Below are positions 8,492 to 39,114 of a stretch of 44,102 nt of DNA, one piece after another (the stretch's first letter is position 1; each line of letters begins with the position of its first letter). The DNA lies in UHGV virus genome UHGV-0016039; one strand, 5' to 3'. Origin of the DNA: a virus. The notes beneath the pieces were generated by a model. It was not told where the DNA came from, did not search any database, and saw only the letters and a list, made by a program, of their open reading frames with translations. The position numbers were made by a program, and so were the translations under genes.

Positions 8492-9183
8492 TTATCTGGT
8501 CATTATTTGACGGCAGCGGATTGATGATCGAGCGTGCTGCCGAGATGGGGCATAAGTGTTATTGCTTCAACTACTCCGAAGCCGATCACGGGTCTTACCT
8601 GGACTACCGGATCTATGGTCGCGGTATCCGATATCGTAATGAGTTTATCGATCTGGACTTTGTAGACCGCGCGATGAATGGCGATTTCGGTACGCCAGAT
8701 ATCATCTACGCATTCCCGCCGTGTACTGATCTGGCGGTGAGCGGTGCGCCAGCTTTCCCGCGCAAACGCGCCCGCGACCCGGCCTTCCAGCTTAAGGCGG
8801 TGCGCACCGCGAAGATCGCAGCTTACCTGGGTGACTTCTTCGAAGTGCCATATATGATTGAGAATCCGCGCAGTGTGCTTTCCACCCAGTGGCGTAAGCC
8901 GGACCACTCGTTTGATCCGTGGGAGTATGGGGGATATCTGCCGGAGGATGACGTACACCCGCTCTTCCCTGAATACATCAACGCCCGCGATTCATATCCG
9001 AAGCTGACCTGCTTATGGGCCGGCAACGGCTTCCGTATGCCGGAGAAGAAACCTGTTTTCGTTGAAAAAGGGTACTCGAAACAGTATAGTCGCCTCGGTG
9101 GTAAATCCGCTCGTACAAAATTAATCCGGTCGCTCACTCCGCGCGGCTTCGCGATAGCGGTTAACGAGGAAAATTTAAAATGA
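8488..9183 (+). CDS. minimal C5-cytosine methyltransferase-like protein (motif I/IV/VI-like, no obvious target-recognition domain)
   Basis: SLFDGSG (FxGxG-like), FPPCTDLAVSG (PC motif), MIENPRS (ENV-like); ATGA overlap with helicase stop. Confidence 0.45.
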   Translation: MIIWSLFDGSGLMIERAAEMGHKCYCFNYSEADHGSYLDYRIYGRGIRYRNEFIDLDFVDRAMNGDFGTPDIIYAFPPCTDLAVSGAPAFPRKRARDPAFQLKAVRTAKIAAYLGDFFEVPYMIENPRSVLSTQWRKPDHSFDPWEYGGYLPEDDVHPLFPEYINARDSYPKLTCLWAGNGFRMPEKKPVFVEKGYSKQYSRLGGKSARTKLIRSLTPRGFAIAVNEENLK

Positions 9184-9503
9184 ATACTACATTCGACGCC
9201 ATCGACTTTTCAGTGGCAATGACCAATCAGCTTTTTTCCTACGACAGTAAGACCGGCGTCATCCGCCTGAAGTCCACCGGACGCAAAATTGGCAACCTTA
9301 ACACTGCCGATGGCGGAACACGTATCGAATGCAACGGCAAGACGCTGTCCGGCGCACGCGTGGCGTGGATTATTGAGACGGGCAATACAATCCCTCCAGG
9401 CTTCGCCGTTGTGTGCCGCCAGCGCACTCCAGGGCACTACGGCAACCGCATGAGCAACCTGTATCTGGTAGACGTTGCGCGCGACCCAAATTTTTATTCG
9501 TAA
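9180..9503 (+). CDS. HNH_3-like domain protein, catalytic motif apparently degenerate
   Basis: ARVAWIIETGNTIPPGFAV..GHYGNRMSNLYLV resembles HNH_3 pattern but lacks a clear DH..N core; ATGA overlap at 9180. Confidence 0.4.
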   Translation: MNTTFDAIDFSVAMTNQLFSYDSKTGVIRLKSTGRKIGNLNTADGGTRIECNGKTLSGARVAWIIETGNTIPPGFAVVCRQRTPGHYGNRMSNLYLVDVARDPNFYS

Positions 9504-9507
9504 ATTG

Positions 9508-9536
9508 GTTGCACAACCATATTGGTTGCATTATAT
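9508..9536 (+). promoter_or_regulatory. sigma70-like promoter TTGCAC-17bp-TATATT with ATTGGTTGCA elements
   Basis: TTGCAC 9508-9513, TATATT 9531-9536; TTGGTTGCA at 9505 and 9521. Confidence 0.5.
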
Positions 9537-9539
9537 TGA

Positions 9540-9565
9540 GGGTGTCCGGTTTGGACGCCCTTTTT
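9540..9565 (+). terminator. hairpin plus T5 run (terminator for upstream operon or attenuator in 5' leader of gene at 9585)
   Basis: gggtgtccgg ttt ggacgccc followed by ttttt, starting about at the predicted TSS. Confidence 0.45.
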
Positions 9566-9584
9566 AATACCTGGAGACAGTGAT

Positions 9585-9827
9585 ATGAAATCATTATTTT
9601 TCGACTACGACGGCGACCTTCGATTTTGGGTGCTCCTCACCCTCATGATTGCCGGCTGTATTGGCATACCTTCGACGGCTATTTACTACACGGAACGCTA
9701 CGAATGCAAGACCGTGTATGCCGAGCAAACCGGACGCAATACCCAATGGCGCTATGGTGTCTGCTGGGTGGAGATGAACGGTAAATTTATCCCACGCAAT
9801 GAAATCCGCACCACGGAGATTAAATAA
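9585..9827 (+). CDS. small membrane protein (80 aa, one TM helix)
   Basis: ATG 9585 preceded by GGAG; FWVLLTLMIAGCIGIPSTAIYY. Confidence 0.5.
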   Translation: MKSLFFDYDGDLRFWVLLTLMIAGCIGIPSTAIYYTERYECKTVYAEQTGRNTQWRYGVCWVEMNGKFIPRNEIRTTEIK

Positions 9828-10286
9828 GTGAAAATTTTACAAGAAGAGAAAAATTACGGGGCCGCGCAATGCCTCGAAGCCCGCGAACAGGCCGAACGCG
9901 CGAACGCGCTGGCGGACACCTACCTGGCGAGCTATGAAGGCGAGGAGAAGGCGCGCAAGGAATTAGAGGAGCGCTTCGATCTGCTGTATGAGTTGATGGG
10001 TATTATGCAGCGCACCGGATACACCACCACCGTCGCGCTAAACCGCATCACTGCCGAAGGTCTGCGCGAGCATTGCAAACGTGCCGAGGCGTACGTGCGC
10101 CCCAAAGGTCACCAGTCTAAGATCGACCGGAAAGACCTGGTGCTTATGGCGTGGCGCGCAAACGGTAGCTACTACTCCGATTGCCGACCGCTTAGCGTCG
10201 AGGGGGGAAAGCGCCTGCAACGCGTTCTAAACAGTGGTAAGAAAATTGCCCTGTACGCGATAGATCAAGACCATGCAGAAGAGTGA
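9828..10286 (+). CDS. hypothetical protein (152 aa), helical/coiled-coil N-terminus
   Basis: ORF track; GTG start directly after upstream stop. Confidence 0.4.
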   Translation: MKILQEEKNYGAAQCLEAREQAERANALADTYLASYEGEEKARKELEERFDLLYELMGIMQRTGYTTTVALNRITAEGLREHCKRAEAYVRPKGHQSKIDRKDLVLMAWRANGSYYSDCRPLSVEGGKRLQRVLNSGKKIALYAIDQDHAEE

Positions 10287-10758
10287 GCAGAAAGATAGCT
10301 GGCGCACACCGCCAGCTTTATTTAAACCGCTGCGCCGTAAGTTCCGATTCCGTTACGATATGGCGGCAAGCGACGCCAATCATCTGCTACCGCGTTACTT
10401 CACGGCAGAGCACAGCGCGCTTGATGTGGACTGGGCAGAGTTGAAAGGGTGGAAATGGTGCAATCCGCCGTATTCCGATCCGCTGCCGTGGGTGGAATGC
10501 GCAGCGCACGGACGGCGGACTGTCATGCTACTGAATCAGGACACGTCGACTAAGTGGGCGAAGTTGGCCCGGAAGACTGCAAACCTGATAATTCTTCTGG
10601 ACTGGCGGATTAGATTCATTCACGCCGTCACCGGCGAAGTCGGTCCGAGCAATAACAAGTGCCAGCAATTGATAATCTTTGACGAAGCGCCACCCCTCGG
10701 CAGCGCACAAATTGAAATAATGAGCGAAGGAGAACTCCTTGAATATCTTAATCGTTGA
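10273..10758 (+). CDS. dam: DNA N6-adenine methyltransferase (phage Dam-type)
   Basis: WRTPPALF N-terminus and NPPY catalytic motif (WCNPPYSDP). Confidence 0.8.
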   Translation: MQKSEQKDSWRTPPALFKPLRRKFRFRYDMAASDANHLLPRYFTAEHSALDVDWAELKGWKWCNPPYSDPLPWVECAAHGRRTVMLLNQDTSTKWAKLARKTANLIILLDWRIRFIHAVTGEVGPSNNKCQQLIIFDEAPPLGSAQIEIMSEGELLEYLNR

Positions 10759-12655: not shown

Positions 12656-14416
12656 TTATTGCTTCAGCGCCGCGATCTCGGCTTTCAACGCCTCCACCTG
12701 CTTAATCGTATCTTGCAATGCGCGCATAGTATCAAGTAACAGCGGCGTCGGGTCTAATTCTAACTGGTGCACTAGCGGCCCATTTAATTCCTGGTTGTTA
12801 TACACGCGATGCTTCACGTACAGCGGGTCTATTTCTTCCGCTTCCTGCGCAATAATACCGCGACGCTGCCGTTTCTGTTCATCGTTGTTGAATACGAACG
12901 TACGGAACCGCAAAGCCTTGATATTGTCGTAGGCGGTGCGGCTGGCGTCATCTTCAATATCATGTTTCAGGTTGCGATCCGACGCAGGCACTTGCTGGAA
13001 CGACCCCACGCCCAGTGGCCCACTGTAAGAAATCTGCCCCTGGTCGTCAAAGCGGAAGTGCATATACGTAGCCATATTCCCCTCGGAGTCACGGTCAGTT
13101 GTGCCGATCGAAATCTGTGCCCGAGGCCAGGCTTCGCCCCCAGTCGTCATCATCCCGAACGACACGCCGCCTGCGTATCCTATGCTTTGTGTTACACAAG
13201 CACCGGCGATTAACGACTGAAAGTTTTCCGCGTAGGTCTGCGCTATGTACGGGTCCGCGCGCACAACGGCCTCGGACCATAGCTGATTATACCCCATCGG
13301 TCCTTTAGAGGATTTGAACTGATGGCCTAAAATACGTGAGCGCGTTGCCCAAGTGTCACCGCTCTCGTAATACAGCCATTCAGCCGCATATCCGCCGCTG
13401 CCGTTGCTTTTTCGCACATATAAGCCGGGGTCTGAGTTTCCGTCTGGTGATAGGATAGCTATGGACGCAAAAACCCCCTTACTACCCCAGTTTGACCCGT
13501 CCCACGTGTTTCGACCCGCGGAGATACCACGGGACGTCACCAGGTCCCCTAAGTTAAGAGAGTCGTCAGGCCCGATGCCTAAGTGACTGCGAGCTGCCGC
13601 GGGGTCGGCAACGTCGCTAAGGTTGTTGCCCTTTGCCAGAAATTTCGACGGGTCGATCTCATTCTTGAATTGTTCGGCCTCGTTCCGGTATCCCCGTGCG
13701 GCATCACGGGCGGCTTGCGCGTCAGTCTTCGCCGTATTGGCCTCGTCGCGAATAGCACCGGTTTCAGTCTTGATCTGGTTCGTCTGGTCTTTTATAGCCT
13801 GCGTATCAGACTTAATCTGATCGGTTTGCGTTTTGATGGTATTAGTGGCGTCGTGGACCGCCTGCGTATCCGCCTTAATCTGATTGGTGGCATCGCGAAT
13901 ACCAGCCGTCTCGGTCTTGAAGCCTTCGGCCTCATTGCTAAACCCTTGCGCAGCTGCTTCAGATGCGGCGGCTTGTTGTTGCAGGTTGCGCATCTCAACG
14001 GGGTCGATCTGTTTCATCAACTGCGACAGATAGCCCCATGACATCCCCTGCATAACCTGCCCGTTAGGTAGCGTAATGGTGATTTCTTCAGCGTCGCCGA
14101 AGATTGCACGCCAGTTGTTTTCATCTGCAATCATCAAGCGCAATGCTTTCTGCGCCTGTACTGTAATGCCCATCGTCGCCAGCGACATGGTATCGCGCGC
14201 AACGCCATCCCATGCAAGGCCGGTTGCCGTTGGGCCGTCGAACGGCAGCACCAGAGTAAGCGCGGTGTCGCTATCGACGGACGCGATCGCCACAGTGTAA
14301 GGGACTTGCCCTACTACCAGCGATAAGAAGTCGCCAGCCTTGAACGCGGTAAACGTTGTTCCGACGCCGACAACCGCCTTGCTGTTATTCGTTACGGATA
14401 GAGTACCCGCTGCCAT
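12656..14416 (-). CDS. tail fiber protein with internal heptad-like repeats and C-terminal intramolecular chaperone (S74-type) domain
   Basis: repeated TNQIK.DTQAI units; C-terminal SDRNLKHDIED...ALRFRTFVF motif; ATG 14416 with AAGAGGA. Confidence 0.85.
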   Translation of the reverse strand: MAAGTLSVTNNSKAVVGVGTTFTAFKAGDFLSLVVGQVPYTVAIASVDSDTALTLVLPFDGPTATGLAWDGVARDTMSLATMGITVQAQKALRLMIADENNWRAIFGDAEEITITLPNGQVMQGMSWGYLSQLMKQIDPVEMRNLQQQAAASEAAAQGFSNEAEGFKTETAGIRDATNQIKADTQAVHDATNTIKTQTDQIKSDTQAIKDQTNQIKTETGAIRDEANTAKTDAQAARDAARGYRNEAEQFKNEIDPSKFLAKGNNLSDVADPAAARSHLGIGPDDSLNLGDLVTSRGISAGRNTWDGSNWGSKGVFASIAILSPDGNSDPGLYVRKSNGSGGYAAEWLYYESGDTWATRSRILGHQFKSSKGPMGYNQLWSEAVVRADPYIAQTYAENFQSLIAGACVTQSIGYAGGVSFGMMTTGGEAWPRAQISIGTTDRDSEGNMATYMHFRFDDQGQISYSGPLGVGSFQQVPASDRNLKHDIEDDASRTAYDNIKALRFRTFVFNNDEQKRQRRGIIAQEAEEIDPLYVKHRVYNNQELNGPLVHQLELDPTPLLLDTMRALQDTIKQVEALKAEIAALKQ

Positions 14417-14496: not shown

Positions 14497-14727
14497 ATGA
14501 AAACTTTAATCAAATCTGCAATCATTGCCGTGGTGGTGAGTATGGCCGTTGGTTGCTCTTCTGGCCCGCGTCCGGACGGTTGGTGCGCGACACAAGCAAG
14601 CGGCGTATGTGTAGCTAAATGGAAAGGCGGTGTCGTTGTTCCGGCGGGTGAGGTTGATATCCGTTATGACGGTATTAAAGGGCATAGCGGATCGGTTCGT
14701 GATTATGGGTCCAGGGAGTGGAACTAA
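14497..14727 (+). CDS. small lipoprotein (signal peptide plus lipobox AVGC, 4 Cys); candidate Llp/Cor-like superinfection-exclusion protein
   Basis: [22 protein letters not shown]; AGGAG 8 nt upstream of ATG 14497. Confidence 0.7.
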
Positions 14728-30394: not shown

Positions 30395-30484
30395 GCTATC
30401 CCCCTGGGATTGTGGCAGAGCAGGCCACCCGCTCGACTTCACGCTTCTAATATTATCAGCGATAAAAATAATCGCAAAATTCGC

Positions 30485-30513
30485 TTGCAATCCTCGTATT
30501 GGTTGCATATATT
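30485..30513 (+). promoter_or_regulatory. sigma70-like promoter TTGCAA-17bp-TATATT with two TTGGTTGCA elements
   Basis: TTGCAA 30485-30490, TATATT 30508-30513; TTGGTTGCA at 30499 and 30513. Confidence 0.5.
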
Positions 30514-30542
30514 GGTTGCACACCAACAACGAGGACACCCAA

Positions 30543-31307
30543 ATGAGACTGACTAAAGTCATTAAAAATCAGATTCTGGCTAACATCCTGCGCGACCACG
30601 AAATAGCGACCAAAGCCAAACTAATAATGATGGACTCGCGTGACTTGGCTTATGCCGTTACGATGGACTGTATGCCGGAAGGCATTCGCACGTTCGCAGC
30701 GCTCCGCGAGCATATCAAGACATTCAGCGGCGACCAGTCGCCGATGTACGGCGTCAGCGTCTACACCAACAAGGCAACATATAGATATGACTCAGGCCTC
30801 CCTAAAGGTATAGGCAGCGTTTATGACGCCACTTTCGAAATAAACGCAGGCGGTAATGTTCGTACCCTATCATTGAGTGGTGACGGTCGGAGATTCCGCC
30901 AACACCGCGGATACTGGGAGGACAAGTATATGAATAAGCTCGCACCGGATCTTAGCGATATTGTTCCTGGGTTTGAAGAAGTTTTGCTGGCGTCAGTGTG
31001 CGAAGTGGACGAGGACGGGAAAGCGTTGCCGATATATCTTCCACGCGGTCGCGCAGATTACCCGGCGGACCATGATTTTTGTAAGCGCCTGGACTGTAAC
31101 GATAAGGCCCGCCGGGAGTTGCGTGCTAAGTATGACGCGTTCAAGTTGACCGTTACCGGTGTGCTGGACCTGCACAATACTGACAAGAAGCTGATTAAGG
31201 CATGGCCTGAAGTTGAGCAATTCATCCCTTACCCGGACAAGCCAAAATCCACGGCGGTGGCGCTGGATGTGAAAACTCTCAACGAGATTTGCGGTATTCC
31301 GCGCTAA
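30543..31307 (+). CDS. hypothetical protein (254 aa) encoded opposite to the flanking head genes (moron-like)
   Basis: ATG 30543 preceded by GAGGA; own promoter upstream and terminator downstream. Confidence 0.6.
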   Translation: MRLTKVIKNQILANILRDHEIATKAKLIMMDSRDLAYAVTMDCMPEGIRTFAALREHIKTFSGDQSPMYGVSVYTNKATYRYDSGLPKGIGSVYDATFEINAGGNVRTLSLSGDGRRFRQHRGYWEDKYMNKLAPDLSDIVPGFEEVLLASVCEVDEDGKALPIYLPRGRADYPADHDFCKRLDCNDKARRELRAKYDAFKLTVTGVLDLHNTDKKLIKAWPEVEQFIPYPDKPKSTAVALDVKTLNEICGIPR

Positions 31308-31309
31308 CG

Positions 31310-31335
31310 AAAAAGGGGCCATTACGGCCCCTTAA
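31310..31335. terminator. bidirectional rho-independent terminator
   Basis: aaaa-aggggcc-atta-cggcccct. Confidence 0.6.
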
Positions 31336-31552
31336 TTATTTGCTGCAACTCCAGGACCTGCGCCCTCAGCTTTGCCCCGCATTCCATATTTTTCACGTCA
31401 ACCATCAAATCCTCGTCGGGGTCTGAGGACGGGTTATCGAACTTGCACGGCGGTCGCAGCGCCGACTCCGTTAGCGGCATCAACGGCGCGTTGCTTGATC
31501 CGCACGCGCTCAGCATCAAAACTACAATCAGGGCGGTTAGGGCGCGTAACAT
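31322..31552 (-). CDS. outer-membrane spanin lipoprotein (Rz1-like), overlapped with Rz
   Basis: MLRALTALIVVLMLSACGSS signal peptide/lipobox, Pro-rich, C-terminal Cys; AGAGG upstream of ATG 31552. Confidence 0.6.
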   Translation of the reverse strand: MLRALTALIVVLMLSACGSSNAPLMPLTESALRPPCKFDNPSSDPDEDLMVDVKNMECGAKLRAQVLELQQIIKGP

Positions 31553-31763
31553 ATTTAACAACCTCTTTCGTGATAGTCCGGTATTCTACGTCGCGGGCCT
31601 GTTCGGCCTGCACGGAGCGCTCAACAACTTTAGTTTGCTGCCGTTGGGCTTGGGCTTGGGCTTCTTGCGCCGCCTCCGCCACTACGCCAGCGCGATAGGA
31701 GTCACCCAGCCAGAATCCCACCGCCAGACCGATAACCAGTCCAATCGCTGCATATTTAATCAC
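31434..31763 (-). CDS. inner-membrane spanin (Rz-like), N-terminal TM plus coiled coil
   Basis: YAAIGLVIGLAVGFWLG TM then AQEAQAQAQRQQ coiled coil; GTG start 31763 assumed (ORF track starts at TTG 31793). Confidence 0.55.
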   Translation of the reverse strand: MIKYAAIGLVIGLAVGFWLGDSYRAGVVAEAAQEAQAQAQRQQTKVVERSVQAEQARDVEYRTITKEVVKYVTRPNRPDCSFDAERVRIKQRAVDAANGVGAATAVQVR

Positions 31764-32859
31764 GCCATAACCCCCGGTTTTTAAGCTGTGCAATAGTCAT
31801 CAGTTCGCCAGAATCGGTAAACATCTTCGGCACTTTCACGCCGCGCATAATCTGGTCGGCGCGTTGCACTCCATATAATTCCTCCAGGATATGGCGCGGC
31901 TGGCGCTGTACCCATGAGAAGAAATCCGTCTGCGCGTCGACCTGCTCACTCAGCAATCTGCCTGCGTCGGCCTTCAGTGCCGGACGCTTACCACTGGGCC
32001 AATCTTCCATACCTTTGACTTTCCACGTCTCCGTCGAGCGGCAGCAATAATGTAGCTTGCCCGGACCAGCGCCATATTGTGATCCCGCCACCACTTTTCC
32101 GCCTCGCTTCCCTTTCGTATCGGGAGTAACATCAACCGGATAAAACAGGCGATCGCGTAGCTGGCACATGGGAGAAGTATGCGTGTCCAATGTAGATAAC
32201 CATTGGCGACCTTCGAGAATATCGTCATTTGCTTTTACCATTAGTTCGCGGGCGGTCGCCGCATAGTGGTTGACTGCGGACTTAACAACGCTTGAGATGG
32301 CTTGCGCACTACGACCGCCTAGCGCGCGCCTCACGTCCGCGATAATTTCCATCGTTGGCTTGCCCTGGATGAATCCTGCGCGCACCTGATTGCCGATCTG
32401 CGTCCTGGTCCACTCAGAAAGTGAGTCAGGCCATTGCATCATCGTATTACCCTGGAACGGGTTTTTCATTGCCGTCGCTGCGATCTGCGCACCTGTCACT
32501 ACGCCAACCACCTCGACCGCCGGTACGGCGACCACCGGCTGGATCGCTGCCGTTAATGTGTCGGCGAGATAATCGGCCTCGGTGTCGGCAAACTCCTGAA
32601 GGCTTTCCGCCAGTACCTTAAACTCGGTGCGCAGTTCCGTTTTTACGGTCTTGTCGAGTTGCGTTAACAACGTGGTAAGTGCCTTGTTGTTCATGGACTT
32701 TTTTCCATCAAGTAACTCGGTCAGCTTACCCAGTAACGTGGGCCGGAACTTCTCCCACATAGCCAGCACCCTCCGCGCCTGGTCATTACTCAGGCGCTGG
32801 GTGAAGATGTGACGGCGAATCATTCGATCCGCCATATATTGATTAATTGTCTTCGCCAT
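31756..32859 (-). CDS. head morphogenesis protein (Mu F / SPP1 gp7-like)
   Basis: position directly downstream of portal; 367 aa. Confidence 0.65.
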   Translation of the reverse strand: MAKTINQYMADRMIRRHIFTQRLSNDQARRVLAMWEKFRPTLLGKLTELLDGKKSMNNKALTTLLTQLDKTVKTELRTEFKVLAESLQEFADTEADYLADTLTAAIQPVVAVPAVEVVGVVTGAQIAATAMKNPFQGNTMMQWPDSLSEWTRTQIGNQVRAGFIQGKPTMEIIADVRRALGGRSAQAISSVVKSAVNHYAATARELMVKANDDILEGRQWLSTLDTHTSPMCQLRDRLFYPVDVTPDTKGKRGGKVVAGSQYGAGPGKLHYCCRSTETWKVKGMEDWPSGKRPALKADAGRLLSEQVDAQTDFFSWVQRQPRHILEELYGVQRADQIMRGVKVPKMFTDSGELMTIAQLKNRGLWRD

Positions 32860-36311: not shown

Positions 36312-36428
36312 GATATAAGCCCTTTTATGCATATGCGCCGACCATCGGCAACATAGGAGACGGCCCAGCCATCTAAGGGGGATTATAACAGGCACAAAAA
36401 AGCCCACCAAATCGGCGGGCTGGGTGGG

Positions 36429-37839: not shown

Positions 37840-37867
37840 ATAAAAAAGCCCGGAATTAACCGGGCTT
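37840..37867 (-). terminator. rho-independent terminator ending lysis-region transcript
   Basis: agcccgg-aattaa-ccgggct followed by tttttt on - strand. Confidence 0.55.
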
Positions 37868-37873
37868 GTTAGT

Positions 37874-38035
37874 TTACTCTTCTGGCTCTGCAGGCGGTGG
37901 CGGACTCGGCAGCTTCGCGTCAAAGACGCCTGCATGGCTGATAGTGTCCGCGATGATAGCGCGTGCGCCAGGGTCTTCGGTTTTAGCCAGCGCGGCGAGC
38001 GCGTCAGCGTTATGATCAAGAATGCTTTTTAACAT
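37874..38035 (-). CDS. small hypothetical protein (53 aa, Pro-rich C-terminus)
   Basis: ATG 38035 preceded by GAGGT; read by hand, below ORF-track cutoff. Confidence 0.35.
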   Translation of the reverse strand: MLKSILDHNADALAALAKTEDPGARAIIADTISHAGVFDAKLPSPPPPAEPEE

Positions 38036-38051: not shown

Positions 38052-38543
38052 TTATGCTGCGTTACGCCCGATTCGCTCGGCAACGTCCCACTGCTTACCA
38101 TCAAACAACGCCTGTCTGCCGATTGCACGGCGTACAAGACCCTTCAGCACTTCCCCGCCTTGCTTGCGGAACTGCGGCAGAGTAGTACGGACCTTCGCCC
38201 AGTCTCCCAGTCGCACCGCGTCATCGAAATCATTCGCGACGTCATCCGGTACGATCGGGCCAGGACCGGCATTGATTACCAGGTCCACCAGCGCATCGAA
38301 TTGCGCCTGATTGATACTAGGGTGTGCGTACTTGTTCACCCAGTTCTCGGCATATGCCACATCTCGCTTGAGCAGTTCCAGCGCTTCCGCGCGGGTAATG
38401 CTCCGCGGCGGGTTCGTGCCTGTATGCCCATAGCCCCAGGTGTACAGGCCGCGGGCCTGCTCTTTCTTAGTCGCGAAATACGGCACTGGGCTGAATTGCT
38501 CCCATGCTGCCGTAAATCTTAGACCGTTGTCACTGAATCGCAT
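38052..38543 (-). CDS. endolysin, GH24 lysozyme-like
   Basis: N-terminal SDNGL..E.F...PY....GLYTWGYGHTG pattern typical of P22/T4-type lysozymes. Confidence 0.78.
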   Translation of the reverse strand: MRFSDNGLRFTAAWEQFSPVPYFATKKEQARGLYTWGYGHTGTNPPRSITRAEALELLKRDVAYAENWVNKYAHPSINQAQFDALVDLVINAGPGPIVPDDVANDFDDAVRLGDWAKVRTTLPQFRKQGGEVLKGLVRRAIGRQALFDGKQWDVAERIGRNAA

Positions 38544-38775
38544 GTTTTACCCCATTCAAAACAGCATTACGCAGCGTGCGCAATGCAAACAGCCAGATTA
38601 ACGCGGTCCAGGTGGCGTCAGATACGTCTCCCGTTTGCAACAGACCGACAATACAGGTCATTGCCGTTAGCAGATATAACACCCGACCGAAGAAGCCATC
38701 CTGGACGGACGGCGCATACACGTTAAACAGGGACGACGCCCCGATAATCACAAACAACAGGACGGTGATAATCAT
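38530..38775 (-). CDS. small membrane protein (holin/antiholin-like, ~3 TM)
   Basis: hydrophobic segments; ATGA overlap with upstream holin. Confidence 0.5.
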   Translation of the reverse strand: MIITVLLFVIIGASSLFNVYAPSVQDGFFGRVLYLLTAMTCIVGLLQTGDVSDATWTALIWLFALRTLRNAVLNGVKHAIQ

Positions 38776-39062
38776 TTTGCGCCCCCCGGAAGGTGTAGCG
38801 TCGCAATTGTCTCCCGGATCCGGTCAGCGATTGGCATCCAGAAGATGGCAGTTACGAAGCCCAAACCGGCAACAGTGCGCTCACCAGACAAACCAGACCA
38901 CTCGGCAATAGCTGGTGCCCCAAATATGGCACACAGGAAGCCAACAACGACATATAAAACGAAGTTCAACGGCCCTTTCGTTGCCTCGCCATGAATGCGT
39001 GCGCCTACGAATCCACCAGCAAGACACGCAAGGGCGAATAACCACTCGTTAAGCTTATCCAT
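38772..39062 (-). CDS. putative holin (3 TM segments)
   Basis: 96 aa with three hydrophobic helices; immediately upstream of endolysin cassette. Confidence 0.6.
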   Translation of the reverse strand: MDKLNEWLFALACLAGGFVGARIHGEATKGPLNFVLYVVVGFLCAIFGAPAIAEWSGLSGERTVAGLGFVTAIFWMPIADRIRETIATLHLPGGAK

Positions 39063-39096
39063 AAAAAAGTCCCAGTAAGTTTTATCTCACTGGGAC
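39063..39096 (-). terminator. hairpin plus T6 directly 5' of holin start codon
   Basis: perfect 9-bp stem agtcccagt/actgggact; T-run on - strand abuts ATG 39062. Confidence 0.5.
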
Positions 39097-39114
39097 TATA
39101 TCACGCTTGCATAA

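Follow-up and report, generated by a model that had tools for sequence, protein, structure and literature searches.

An overlapping gene pair among the head-morphogenesis genes of a Dhillonvirus genome as a probable two-component spanin of the 'Jersey' family

The stretch of DNA analysed here (virus genome UHGV-0016039, 44,102 nt, hereafter the window) carries two overlapping ORFs at 31434-31763 and 31322-31552, the first encoding a protein with an N-terminal transmembrane helix and the second a small lipoprotein precursor. The original prediction had read this pair as an Rz/Rz1-like spanin and gave both sets of coordinates exactly; the strand, which it left unstated, is minus for both ORFs. 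We refer to the two products as the i-spanin and the o-spanin, respectively, and the features of the locus are as follows.

30540-31307, plus strand: gene for a 255 aa Nmad5 protein (Pfam Nmad5, nucleotide modification associated domain 5, E 4e-56; phrog_1965), convergent with the spanin genes
31313-31333, minus strand, also scoring on the plus strand: GC-rich hairpin that overlaps the o-spanin stop codon, is followed by TTTTTCGTT on the minus strand and lies at the 3' end of the Nmad5 gene
31322-31552, minus strand: putative o-spanin gene, 76 aa precursor, ATG start (phrog_5672, phrog_1267)
31434-31552, minus strand: dual-coding overlap of 119 nt, encoding the C-terminus of the i-spanin and the signal peptide and linker of the o-spanin
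31434-31763, minus strand: putative i-spanin gene, 109 aa, GTG start (ORF translation; phrog_2536)
i-spanin residues about 4-20: N-terminal transmembrane helix, followed by the periplasmic domain
31562-31567, minus strand: Shine-Dalgarno site AAGAGG of the o-spanin, 9 nt upstream of its ATG and inside the i-spanin gene
31756-32859, minus strand: MuF-like head-morphogenesis gene (phrog_241, E 1e-116)
31771-31775, minus strand: Shine-Dalgarno site GGGGG of the i-spanin, located within the 3'-terminal part of the MuF-like gene

A 2.5 kb segment that includes the spanin pair matches 158 phage records, almost all of them Escherichia/Shigella Dhillonvirus, with the best match to phage NHEP3 at 95.4% identity and phage EP23 at 92%. 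With lengths of 42.6-45.5 kb, the matching records are similar in size to the window. The segment was not found in the complete E. coli genome collection, and hence not as a prophage there, which fits a virulent phage. The window would thus be the whole genome of a virulent HK578/EP23-like siphovirus of the E. coli/Shigella host group, belonging to Dhillonvirus.

The i-spanin begins with MIKYAAIGLVIGLAVGFWLGDSYR (translation of 31434-31763), and its residues 1-19 (MIKYAAIGLVIGLAVGFWL), with a Kyte-Doolittle mean of 1.90, make up the sole hydrophobic segment of the protein, as expected from the N-terminal transmembrane helix that the original prediction had assigned to it. The remainder, roughly 85 residues, is polar and contains a single cysteine (C80). 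With K3 on the N side of the transmembrane helix, the protein would adopt an N-in/C-out topology. In a PHROG search, the i-spanin matched phrog_2536, 'Rz-like spanin', with an E of 3.6e-36, and other spanin families more weakly. C80 is invariant among the Dhillonvirus i-spanins, and when these are aligned with those of Jerseyvirus FSL SP-101, Kagunavirus phiEc3, Serratia phage Smarc3, and an IMG/VR contig, C80 and its surrounding motif are kept at 33-38% identity. A single-sequence AF2 model of low confidence (pLDDT 59) places a helix at residues 3-72, followed by a C80-containing loop and another helix at residues 84-97.

A periplasmic coiled coil had also been proposed for this protein, and here the proposal is not supported: the region is predicted to be helical, but in the survey of spanins by Kongari et al. 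2018 (Table S3), Pepcoil returned zero coiled-coil segments for the i-spanins of both EP23 and HK578, and the EP23 periplasmic domain is identical to that of the present protein. The same survey counts more than 120 i-spanins that have no coiled coil (PMC6139136). Four Dhillonvirus relatives from IMG/VR have a shorter i-spanin of 102 aa, with the stop 21 nt earlier and an overlap of 98 nt, while the o-spanin is still 76 aa long. These 102 aa versions fit the survey's description of the extreme C-terminus as variable in 'Jersey' i-spanins (PMC6139136).

The o-spanin precursor opens with the lipoprotein signal MLRALTALIVVLMLSA, with CGSS directly after the cleavage site; the signal consists of a basic n-region (R3), a hydrophobic core (KD11 2.99), and the lipobox LSAC, with cleavage before C17. 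The mature part is 60 aa long and contains 7 prolines, two further cysteines (C36 and C58), and a glycine at position +2. The '+2 rule' governs the sorting of lipoproteins to the inner or outer membrane in E. coli, and because the residue at this position is glycine, the o-spanin is predicted to be sorted to the outer membrane. The reading frame of the o-spanin is +1 relative to that of the i-spanin, and the o-spanin gene runs 112 nt past the i-spanin stop. Signal, proline content, and frame, all read directly from the sequence, bear out the earlier description of this ORF as a proline-rich lipoprotein with an LSAC lipobox in another frame.

In the PHROG search, the o-spanin matched two 'Rz-like spanin' families, phrog_5672 over its C-terminal 45 residues (E 2.3e-26) and phrog_1267 over nearly its full length (E 6.8e-12). 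The lipobox is kept in 16 of 16 Dhillonvirus relatives, and across these and more distant relatives it occurs as LSAC, LTAC, MSAC, LSGC, or LCGC. An overlapping lipobox ORF is likewise present in all of the distant relatives that we aligned (Jerseyvirus FSL SP-101, Kagunavirus phiEc3, Serratia phage Smarc3, and an IMG/VR contig), where C17, C36, and C58 are all kept at 36-50% identity. The single-sequence AF2 model of the o-spanin, again of low confidence (pLDDT 57), contains a signal helix, a disordered proline-rich stretch at residues 16-50, and a helix at residues 51-73. Sub-threshold traces in the NCBIfam search connect the o-spanin N-terminus to lipoprotein signal peptides only.

Under the definition of a two-component spanin given by Kongari et al. 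2018, the i-spanin has a single N-terminal transmembrane domain with the rest of the protein periplasmic (type II), and the o-spanin has a lipoprotein signal free of any inner-membrane retention signal. Both arrangements are predicted here from the sequence. The definition further expects adjacent genes of the embedded, overlapped, or separated type, which in the window are overlapped, and periplasmic cysteines for intermolecular disulfides, which the pair has in C80 of the i-spanin and in C36 and C58 of the o-spanin, the disulfides themselves being predicted. The original prediction had named a spanin-specific search for transmembrane segment, lipobox, and periplasmic cysteines as one way to check it, and all three are present in the pair, with the cysteines invariant. 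The overlapped two-component architecture that it proposed is further upheld by the PHROG spanin matches of both proteins and by orthologues in the curated survey.

We consider it about 90% probable that the overlapping pair at 31434-31763 and 31322-31552 is the two-component spanin of this Dhillonvirus and belongs to the 'Jersey' overlapped spanin family. The survey (Kongari et al. 2018, PMC6139136) lists EP23, HK578, JL1, SSL-2009a, and SO-1 as phages with overlapped spanins, their i-spanins and o-spanins both being assigned to 'Jersey' families. Its Table S1 gives EP23p05 and HK578_005 a GTG start, a marked Shine-Dalgarno sequence 'aaaaccGGGGGttatggc', lengths of 109 and 76 aa, and a 119-nt overlap (PMC6139136), and the present pair shares with EP23 and HK578 the GTG start, the GGGGG site, both lengths, and the extent of the overlap. 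EP23p05, a member of the EP23-to-SO-1 subfamily of the 'Jersey' family, is 98% identical to the present i-spanin, with just two differences, both in the transmembrane helix, and an identical periplasmic domain. The survey describes 'Jersey' i-spanins as two helices and a linker and 'Jersey' o-spanins as having two constant cysteines and a conserved C-terminal helix (PMC6139136); the present o-spanin likewise has two constant periplasmic cysteines, the helices in the low-confidence AF2 models of the pair agree with this description, and the genes share the family's position between head-morphogenesis and scaffold genes. The spanin pair of Dhillonvirus is thus already catalogued and annotated, and nothing of substance sets the present copy apart, which is new as a sequence at the level of an isolate. 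Beyond this group, tblastn found homologues of each spanin in about 650 phage records (more than 640), mainly Salmonella Jerseyvirus and Escherichia Kagunavirus.

From this architecture and the lambda and T4 paradigms, a role in outer-membrane disruption at lysis is predicted for both genes. As in the lambda Rz/Rz1 pair, a type II inner-membrane protein and a small proline-rich outer-membrane lipoprotein are encoded in two frames of one DNA, both partners have periplasmic cysteines, and the pair is predicted to complete lysis by disrupting the outer membrane. In contrast to Rz/Rz1, the present genes are overlapped rather than embedded, lie apart from the genes for holin and endolysin, and show no detectable sequence similarity to their lambda counterparts. 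The lambda Rz i-spanin has two periplasmic coiled-coil domains, whereas none is predicted for the present i-spanin, which has a predicted beta element in its linker. The mature o-spanin is 60 aa long here versus 40 aa in lambda and has a predicted C-terminal helix, and the cysteine pattern also differs, the present i-spanin having one and its partner two.

A Pfam search at E up to 1 returned no family for either spanin, an NCBIfam search gave no significant match for either, and a sequence search against PDB chains gave only chance-level matches (ribosomal protein S5 and CcoP, E above 0.05) and no solved relative. The Pfam and NCBIfam results exclude membership in the lambda Rz/Rz1 families and leave spanin function unaffected. 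Accordingly, the label 'Rz/Rz1-like' is apt for function and architecture only, since at the sequence level no Pfam family was matched. The T4 PseT.3/PseT.2 pair resembles the present one in being a two-component spanin whose genes are not linked to those for holin and endolysin (PMC6139136), and differs in its separated architecture, in its sequence family, and in lying outside a head-morphogenesis module.

A six-frame scan of all 44,102 nt found three lipobox-type ORFs, and only the one at 31322-31552 has a transmembrane-anchored partner. The second, at 14497-14727 (plus strand, 76 aa), adjoins the end of a 586 aa minus-strand ORF at 12656-14416 and is possibly an exclusion-type (Cor/Llp-like) lipoprotein; as a spanin it was rejected, having no transmembrane-anchored partner and no evident C-terminal transmembrane domain. 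The third, at 9585-9827, was rejected as a spanin, as it too has no transmembrane-anchored partner; its cysteine lies inside a hydrophobic stretch 25 residues in, and it is more likely a membrane protein than a lipoprotein. A unimolecular spanin of the T1 gp11 type was also rejected, since the o-spanin has no C-terminal hydrophobic segment and none is evident in any of the three lipobox ORFs.

Exclusion is a function that small outer-membrane lipoproteins of phages can have, and the 76 aa lipoprotein might accordingly be a Cor/Llp-like protein for superinfection exclusion or receptor blocking, with the 109 aa protein unrelated to it and the overlap reflecting genome compaction only. The position of the pair outside the lysis cassette would suit such a role, and our literature search found no experiment assigning the function of the pair, nor an experimental test of any member of the 'Jersey' spanin family. 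However, the two genes co-vary and remain neighbours or overlap even in widely diverged phages (the o-spanins being 36-50% identical), invariant cysteines occur in both partners as expected for an interacting pair, and both proteins match spanin families. The window moreover offers another lipobox ORF, that at 14497-14727, next to the tail-fibre region, where exclusion lipoproteins are usually encoded, and without the present pair the phage would have no candidate for outer-membrane disruption. We therefore regard an exclusion function as highly improbable.

The placement of the spanin genes relative to the other lysis genes was then considered, together with the terminator-like hairpins of this part of the minus strand.

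36401-36421, minus strand: GC-rich hairpin with T-run (consensus scan)
37846-37867, minus strand, also scoring on the plus strand: GC-rich hairpin with T-run (consensus scan)
38052-38543, minus strand: endolysin gene, 163 aa (phrog_7, E 1.8e-35; PF00959 Phage_lysozyme, E 1.3e-20)
38530-38775, minus strand: holin 2 gene, 81 aa (phrog_2508 holin, E 4.1e-27)
38772-39062, minus strand: holin 1 gene, 96 aa (phrog_2359 holin, E 9.6e-31)
39068-39097, minus strand: GC-rich hairpin with T-run (consensus scan)

The family matches confirm a holin/endolysin cassette at 38052-39062, where the original prediction had put it. The endolysin is of the lysozyme type and has no obvious N-terminal hydrophobic segment. 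Two consecutive holin-family genes lie upstream of it, and both of their families also occur in a Jerseyvirus (PMC9409062). The cassette had been placed about 6.5 kb from the spanin pair; the separation is real, with 6,289 bp between the stop of the endolysin gene and the start of the i-spanin gene. Similarly, the pair does lie between the MuF and scaffold genes as described, without directly adjoining the scaffold gene, as the convergent Nmad5 gene intervenes. We found no spanin-like gene beside the endolysin and no other spanin candidate in the whole genome. The ORF next after the endolysin, at 37874-38035 (53 aa, phrog_11068), was rejected as a spanin, as it has neither a hydrophobic segment nor a lipobox.

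Spanin genes between head-morphogenesis and scaffold genes are also found in EP23, NHEP3, Jerseyvirus FSL SP-101, Kagunavirus phiEc3, and Serratia phage Smarc3, and the separation of the spanins from the holin and endolysin genes is therefore the norm of this and related phage groups and no oddity of the present genome. For instance, in the genome paper of a Jerseyvirus, the spanins are numbered Gp_009/010 and the holin and endolysin proteins Gp_063-065, all assigned to PHROG families that recur here (PMC9409062). In T4, too, the spanin genes are located away from t and e according to the survey (PMC6139136).

Every gene from the holins through the o-spanin is on the minus strand, and the i-spanin gene, from its GTG start, shares 8 nt with the end of the MuF-like gene, an arrangement suggestive of translational coupling between the two. 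Our terminator and promoter scan consisted of consensus matches whose total is near chance (13 found versus 10.8 expected), and of the terminator-like hairpins found on the minus strand, the strongest four all lie between genes or just upstream of them. Their placement suggests three units on this strand, namely holin-holin-endolysin-orf53, exonuclease-orf70, and terS-terL-portal-MuF-i-spanin-o-spanin, with the hairpin at 31313-31333 as a putative intrinsic terminator closing the last of these. As the last two genes of the terminase-portal-MuF unit, the spanins would probably be expressed with that unit.

Such a position, held between MuF-like and scaffold genes in at least four phage groups and coupled with a start codon that overlaps the MuF stop, could also be taken to mean that the pair serves as an accessory of head assembly or of the virion, for example for membrane anchoring of assembly, rather than a lysis system. 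The signals of the two proteins speak against this, as neither a lipoprotein that is exported nor a type II membrane protein whose domain faces the periplasm would be in the compartment where heads are assembled; nor does unlinking from the holin and endolysin genes set the pair apart from spanins, since the T4 spanins are unlinked as well (PMC6139136). With both proteins homologous to spanin families besides, we give a head-assembly role even less credence than exclusion.

To return to the spanin reading, it requires that both frames of the overlap encode real proteins, and here the diversity among relatives is informative. We compared 17 distinct Dhillonvirus sequences, namely the window and 16 relatives from IMG/VR and GenBank that are 79-98% identical to it over 442 nt in a gap-free alignment. 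In the part coding for the i-spanin only, diversity at i-frame codon positions 1, 2, and 3 is 0.075, 0.040, and 0.215, and in the part coding for the o-spanin only, the corresponding o-frame values are 0.094, 0.027, and 0.226. In the overlap, diversity falls to 0.076 versus 0.11-0.12 in the single-frame parts, and the variation is split across the third positions of both frames. Nei-Gojobori dN/dS against six relatives, calculated in the own frame of each gene, ranges from 0.04 to 0.24 in the i-only part and from 0.04 to 0.26 in the o-only part, versus 1.0-8 for these parts in the frame of the other gene. Because dN/dS is low in the own frame and high in the wrong frame, and because diversity is frame-specific, both proteins are real and under purifying selection. 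The reading of one ORF as a chance frame over a real gene, with a single protein made, is excluded by these diversity and dN/dS data: overlapping ORFs are common in a GC-balanced genome and many public records annotate one gene only or a truncated o-spanin, but third-position variability switches frame at the boundary, the non-overlapping part of each gene has a dN/dS of 0.04-0.26 in its proper frame and of 1 or more in the alternative one, each ORF has a separate Shine-Dalgarno site, the lipobox is kept in every relative examined, and o-spanins are often missed or mis-started by gene callers according to the survey (PMC6139136).

By analogy with lambda Rz/Rz1 (PMC6139136), the 109 aa i-spanin would insert into the inner membrane through its N-terminal helix, N-in/C-out, and the 76 aa o-spanin precursor would be exported, lipidated at Cys17, cleaved, and anchored in the outer membrane. 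The C-terminal parts of the two proteins would then join across the periplasm through the peptidoglycan mesh, and C80 of the i-spanin with C36 and C58 of the o-spanin may stabilise the spanin complexes covalently, giving multimers. Once the two holins (38530-39062) had permeabilised the inner membrane and the lysozyme (38052-38543) had destroyed the murein, the freed spanin complexes would disrupt the outer membrane, probably by fusion of the inner and outer membranes, and lysis would be complete. Because no coiled coil is predicted for the near-identical i-spanins of EP23 and HK578, the lambda-type coiled-coil fusion model may, in detail, not be transferable to the present i-spanin.

A wider proposal, which we put forward tentatively and consider doubtful as a whole, is that in Dhillonvirus, Guernseyvirinae, and their relatives, spanin synthesis is wired to the packaging/head-morphogenesis transcript instead of the holin/endolysin unit (in Dhillonvirus also through translational coupling to the MuF-like gene), and that their helix-beta-helix i-spanin with no predicted coiled coil disrupts the outer membrane in a way that differs in detail from the lambda fusion model.

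The main value of these results lies in correct annotation. In public records, 'Rz-like spanin' is given twice in the RefSeq entry of EP23 and once, for the o-spanin only, in NHEP3, others carry 'putative spanin', and both spanin genes are 'hypothetical protein' in many Dhillonvirus records. The o-spanin of the EP23 RefSeq entry (10516-10674) is a 52 aa version whose start lies downstream of the lipobox, and the match to phrog_5672 is limited to the C-terminal 45 residues probably because of such truncated o-spanin calls. The pair is thus another case in which automatic callers, as they often do, miss o-spanins or truncate their starts, and it also illustrates that spanin genes need not sit in the lysis cassette. 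For the engineering of Dhillonvirus for therapy, the head-gene block holds two overlapping lysis genes, and edits around 31322-31763 would affect both.

The slot between the o-spanin and scaffold genes (30400-31310 of the window) holds variable cargo on the opposite strand. In the Dhillonvirus phage PhiSMA8, the substitution K216E in nmad5 allows escape from Tmn defence, whereas deletion of nmad5 does not (PMC11846954); the Nmad5 protein of the window has a lysine at position 216 in its own numbering. Nmad5 is the only cargo here and in NHEP3, and the slot of EP23 (9144-10502) has an extra gene for a RusA-like resolvase. Several megablast matches are split in two at this slot, where the record is about 360 bp longer than the query.
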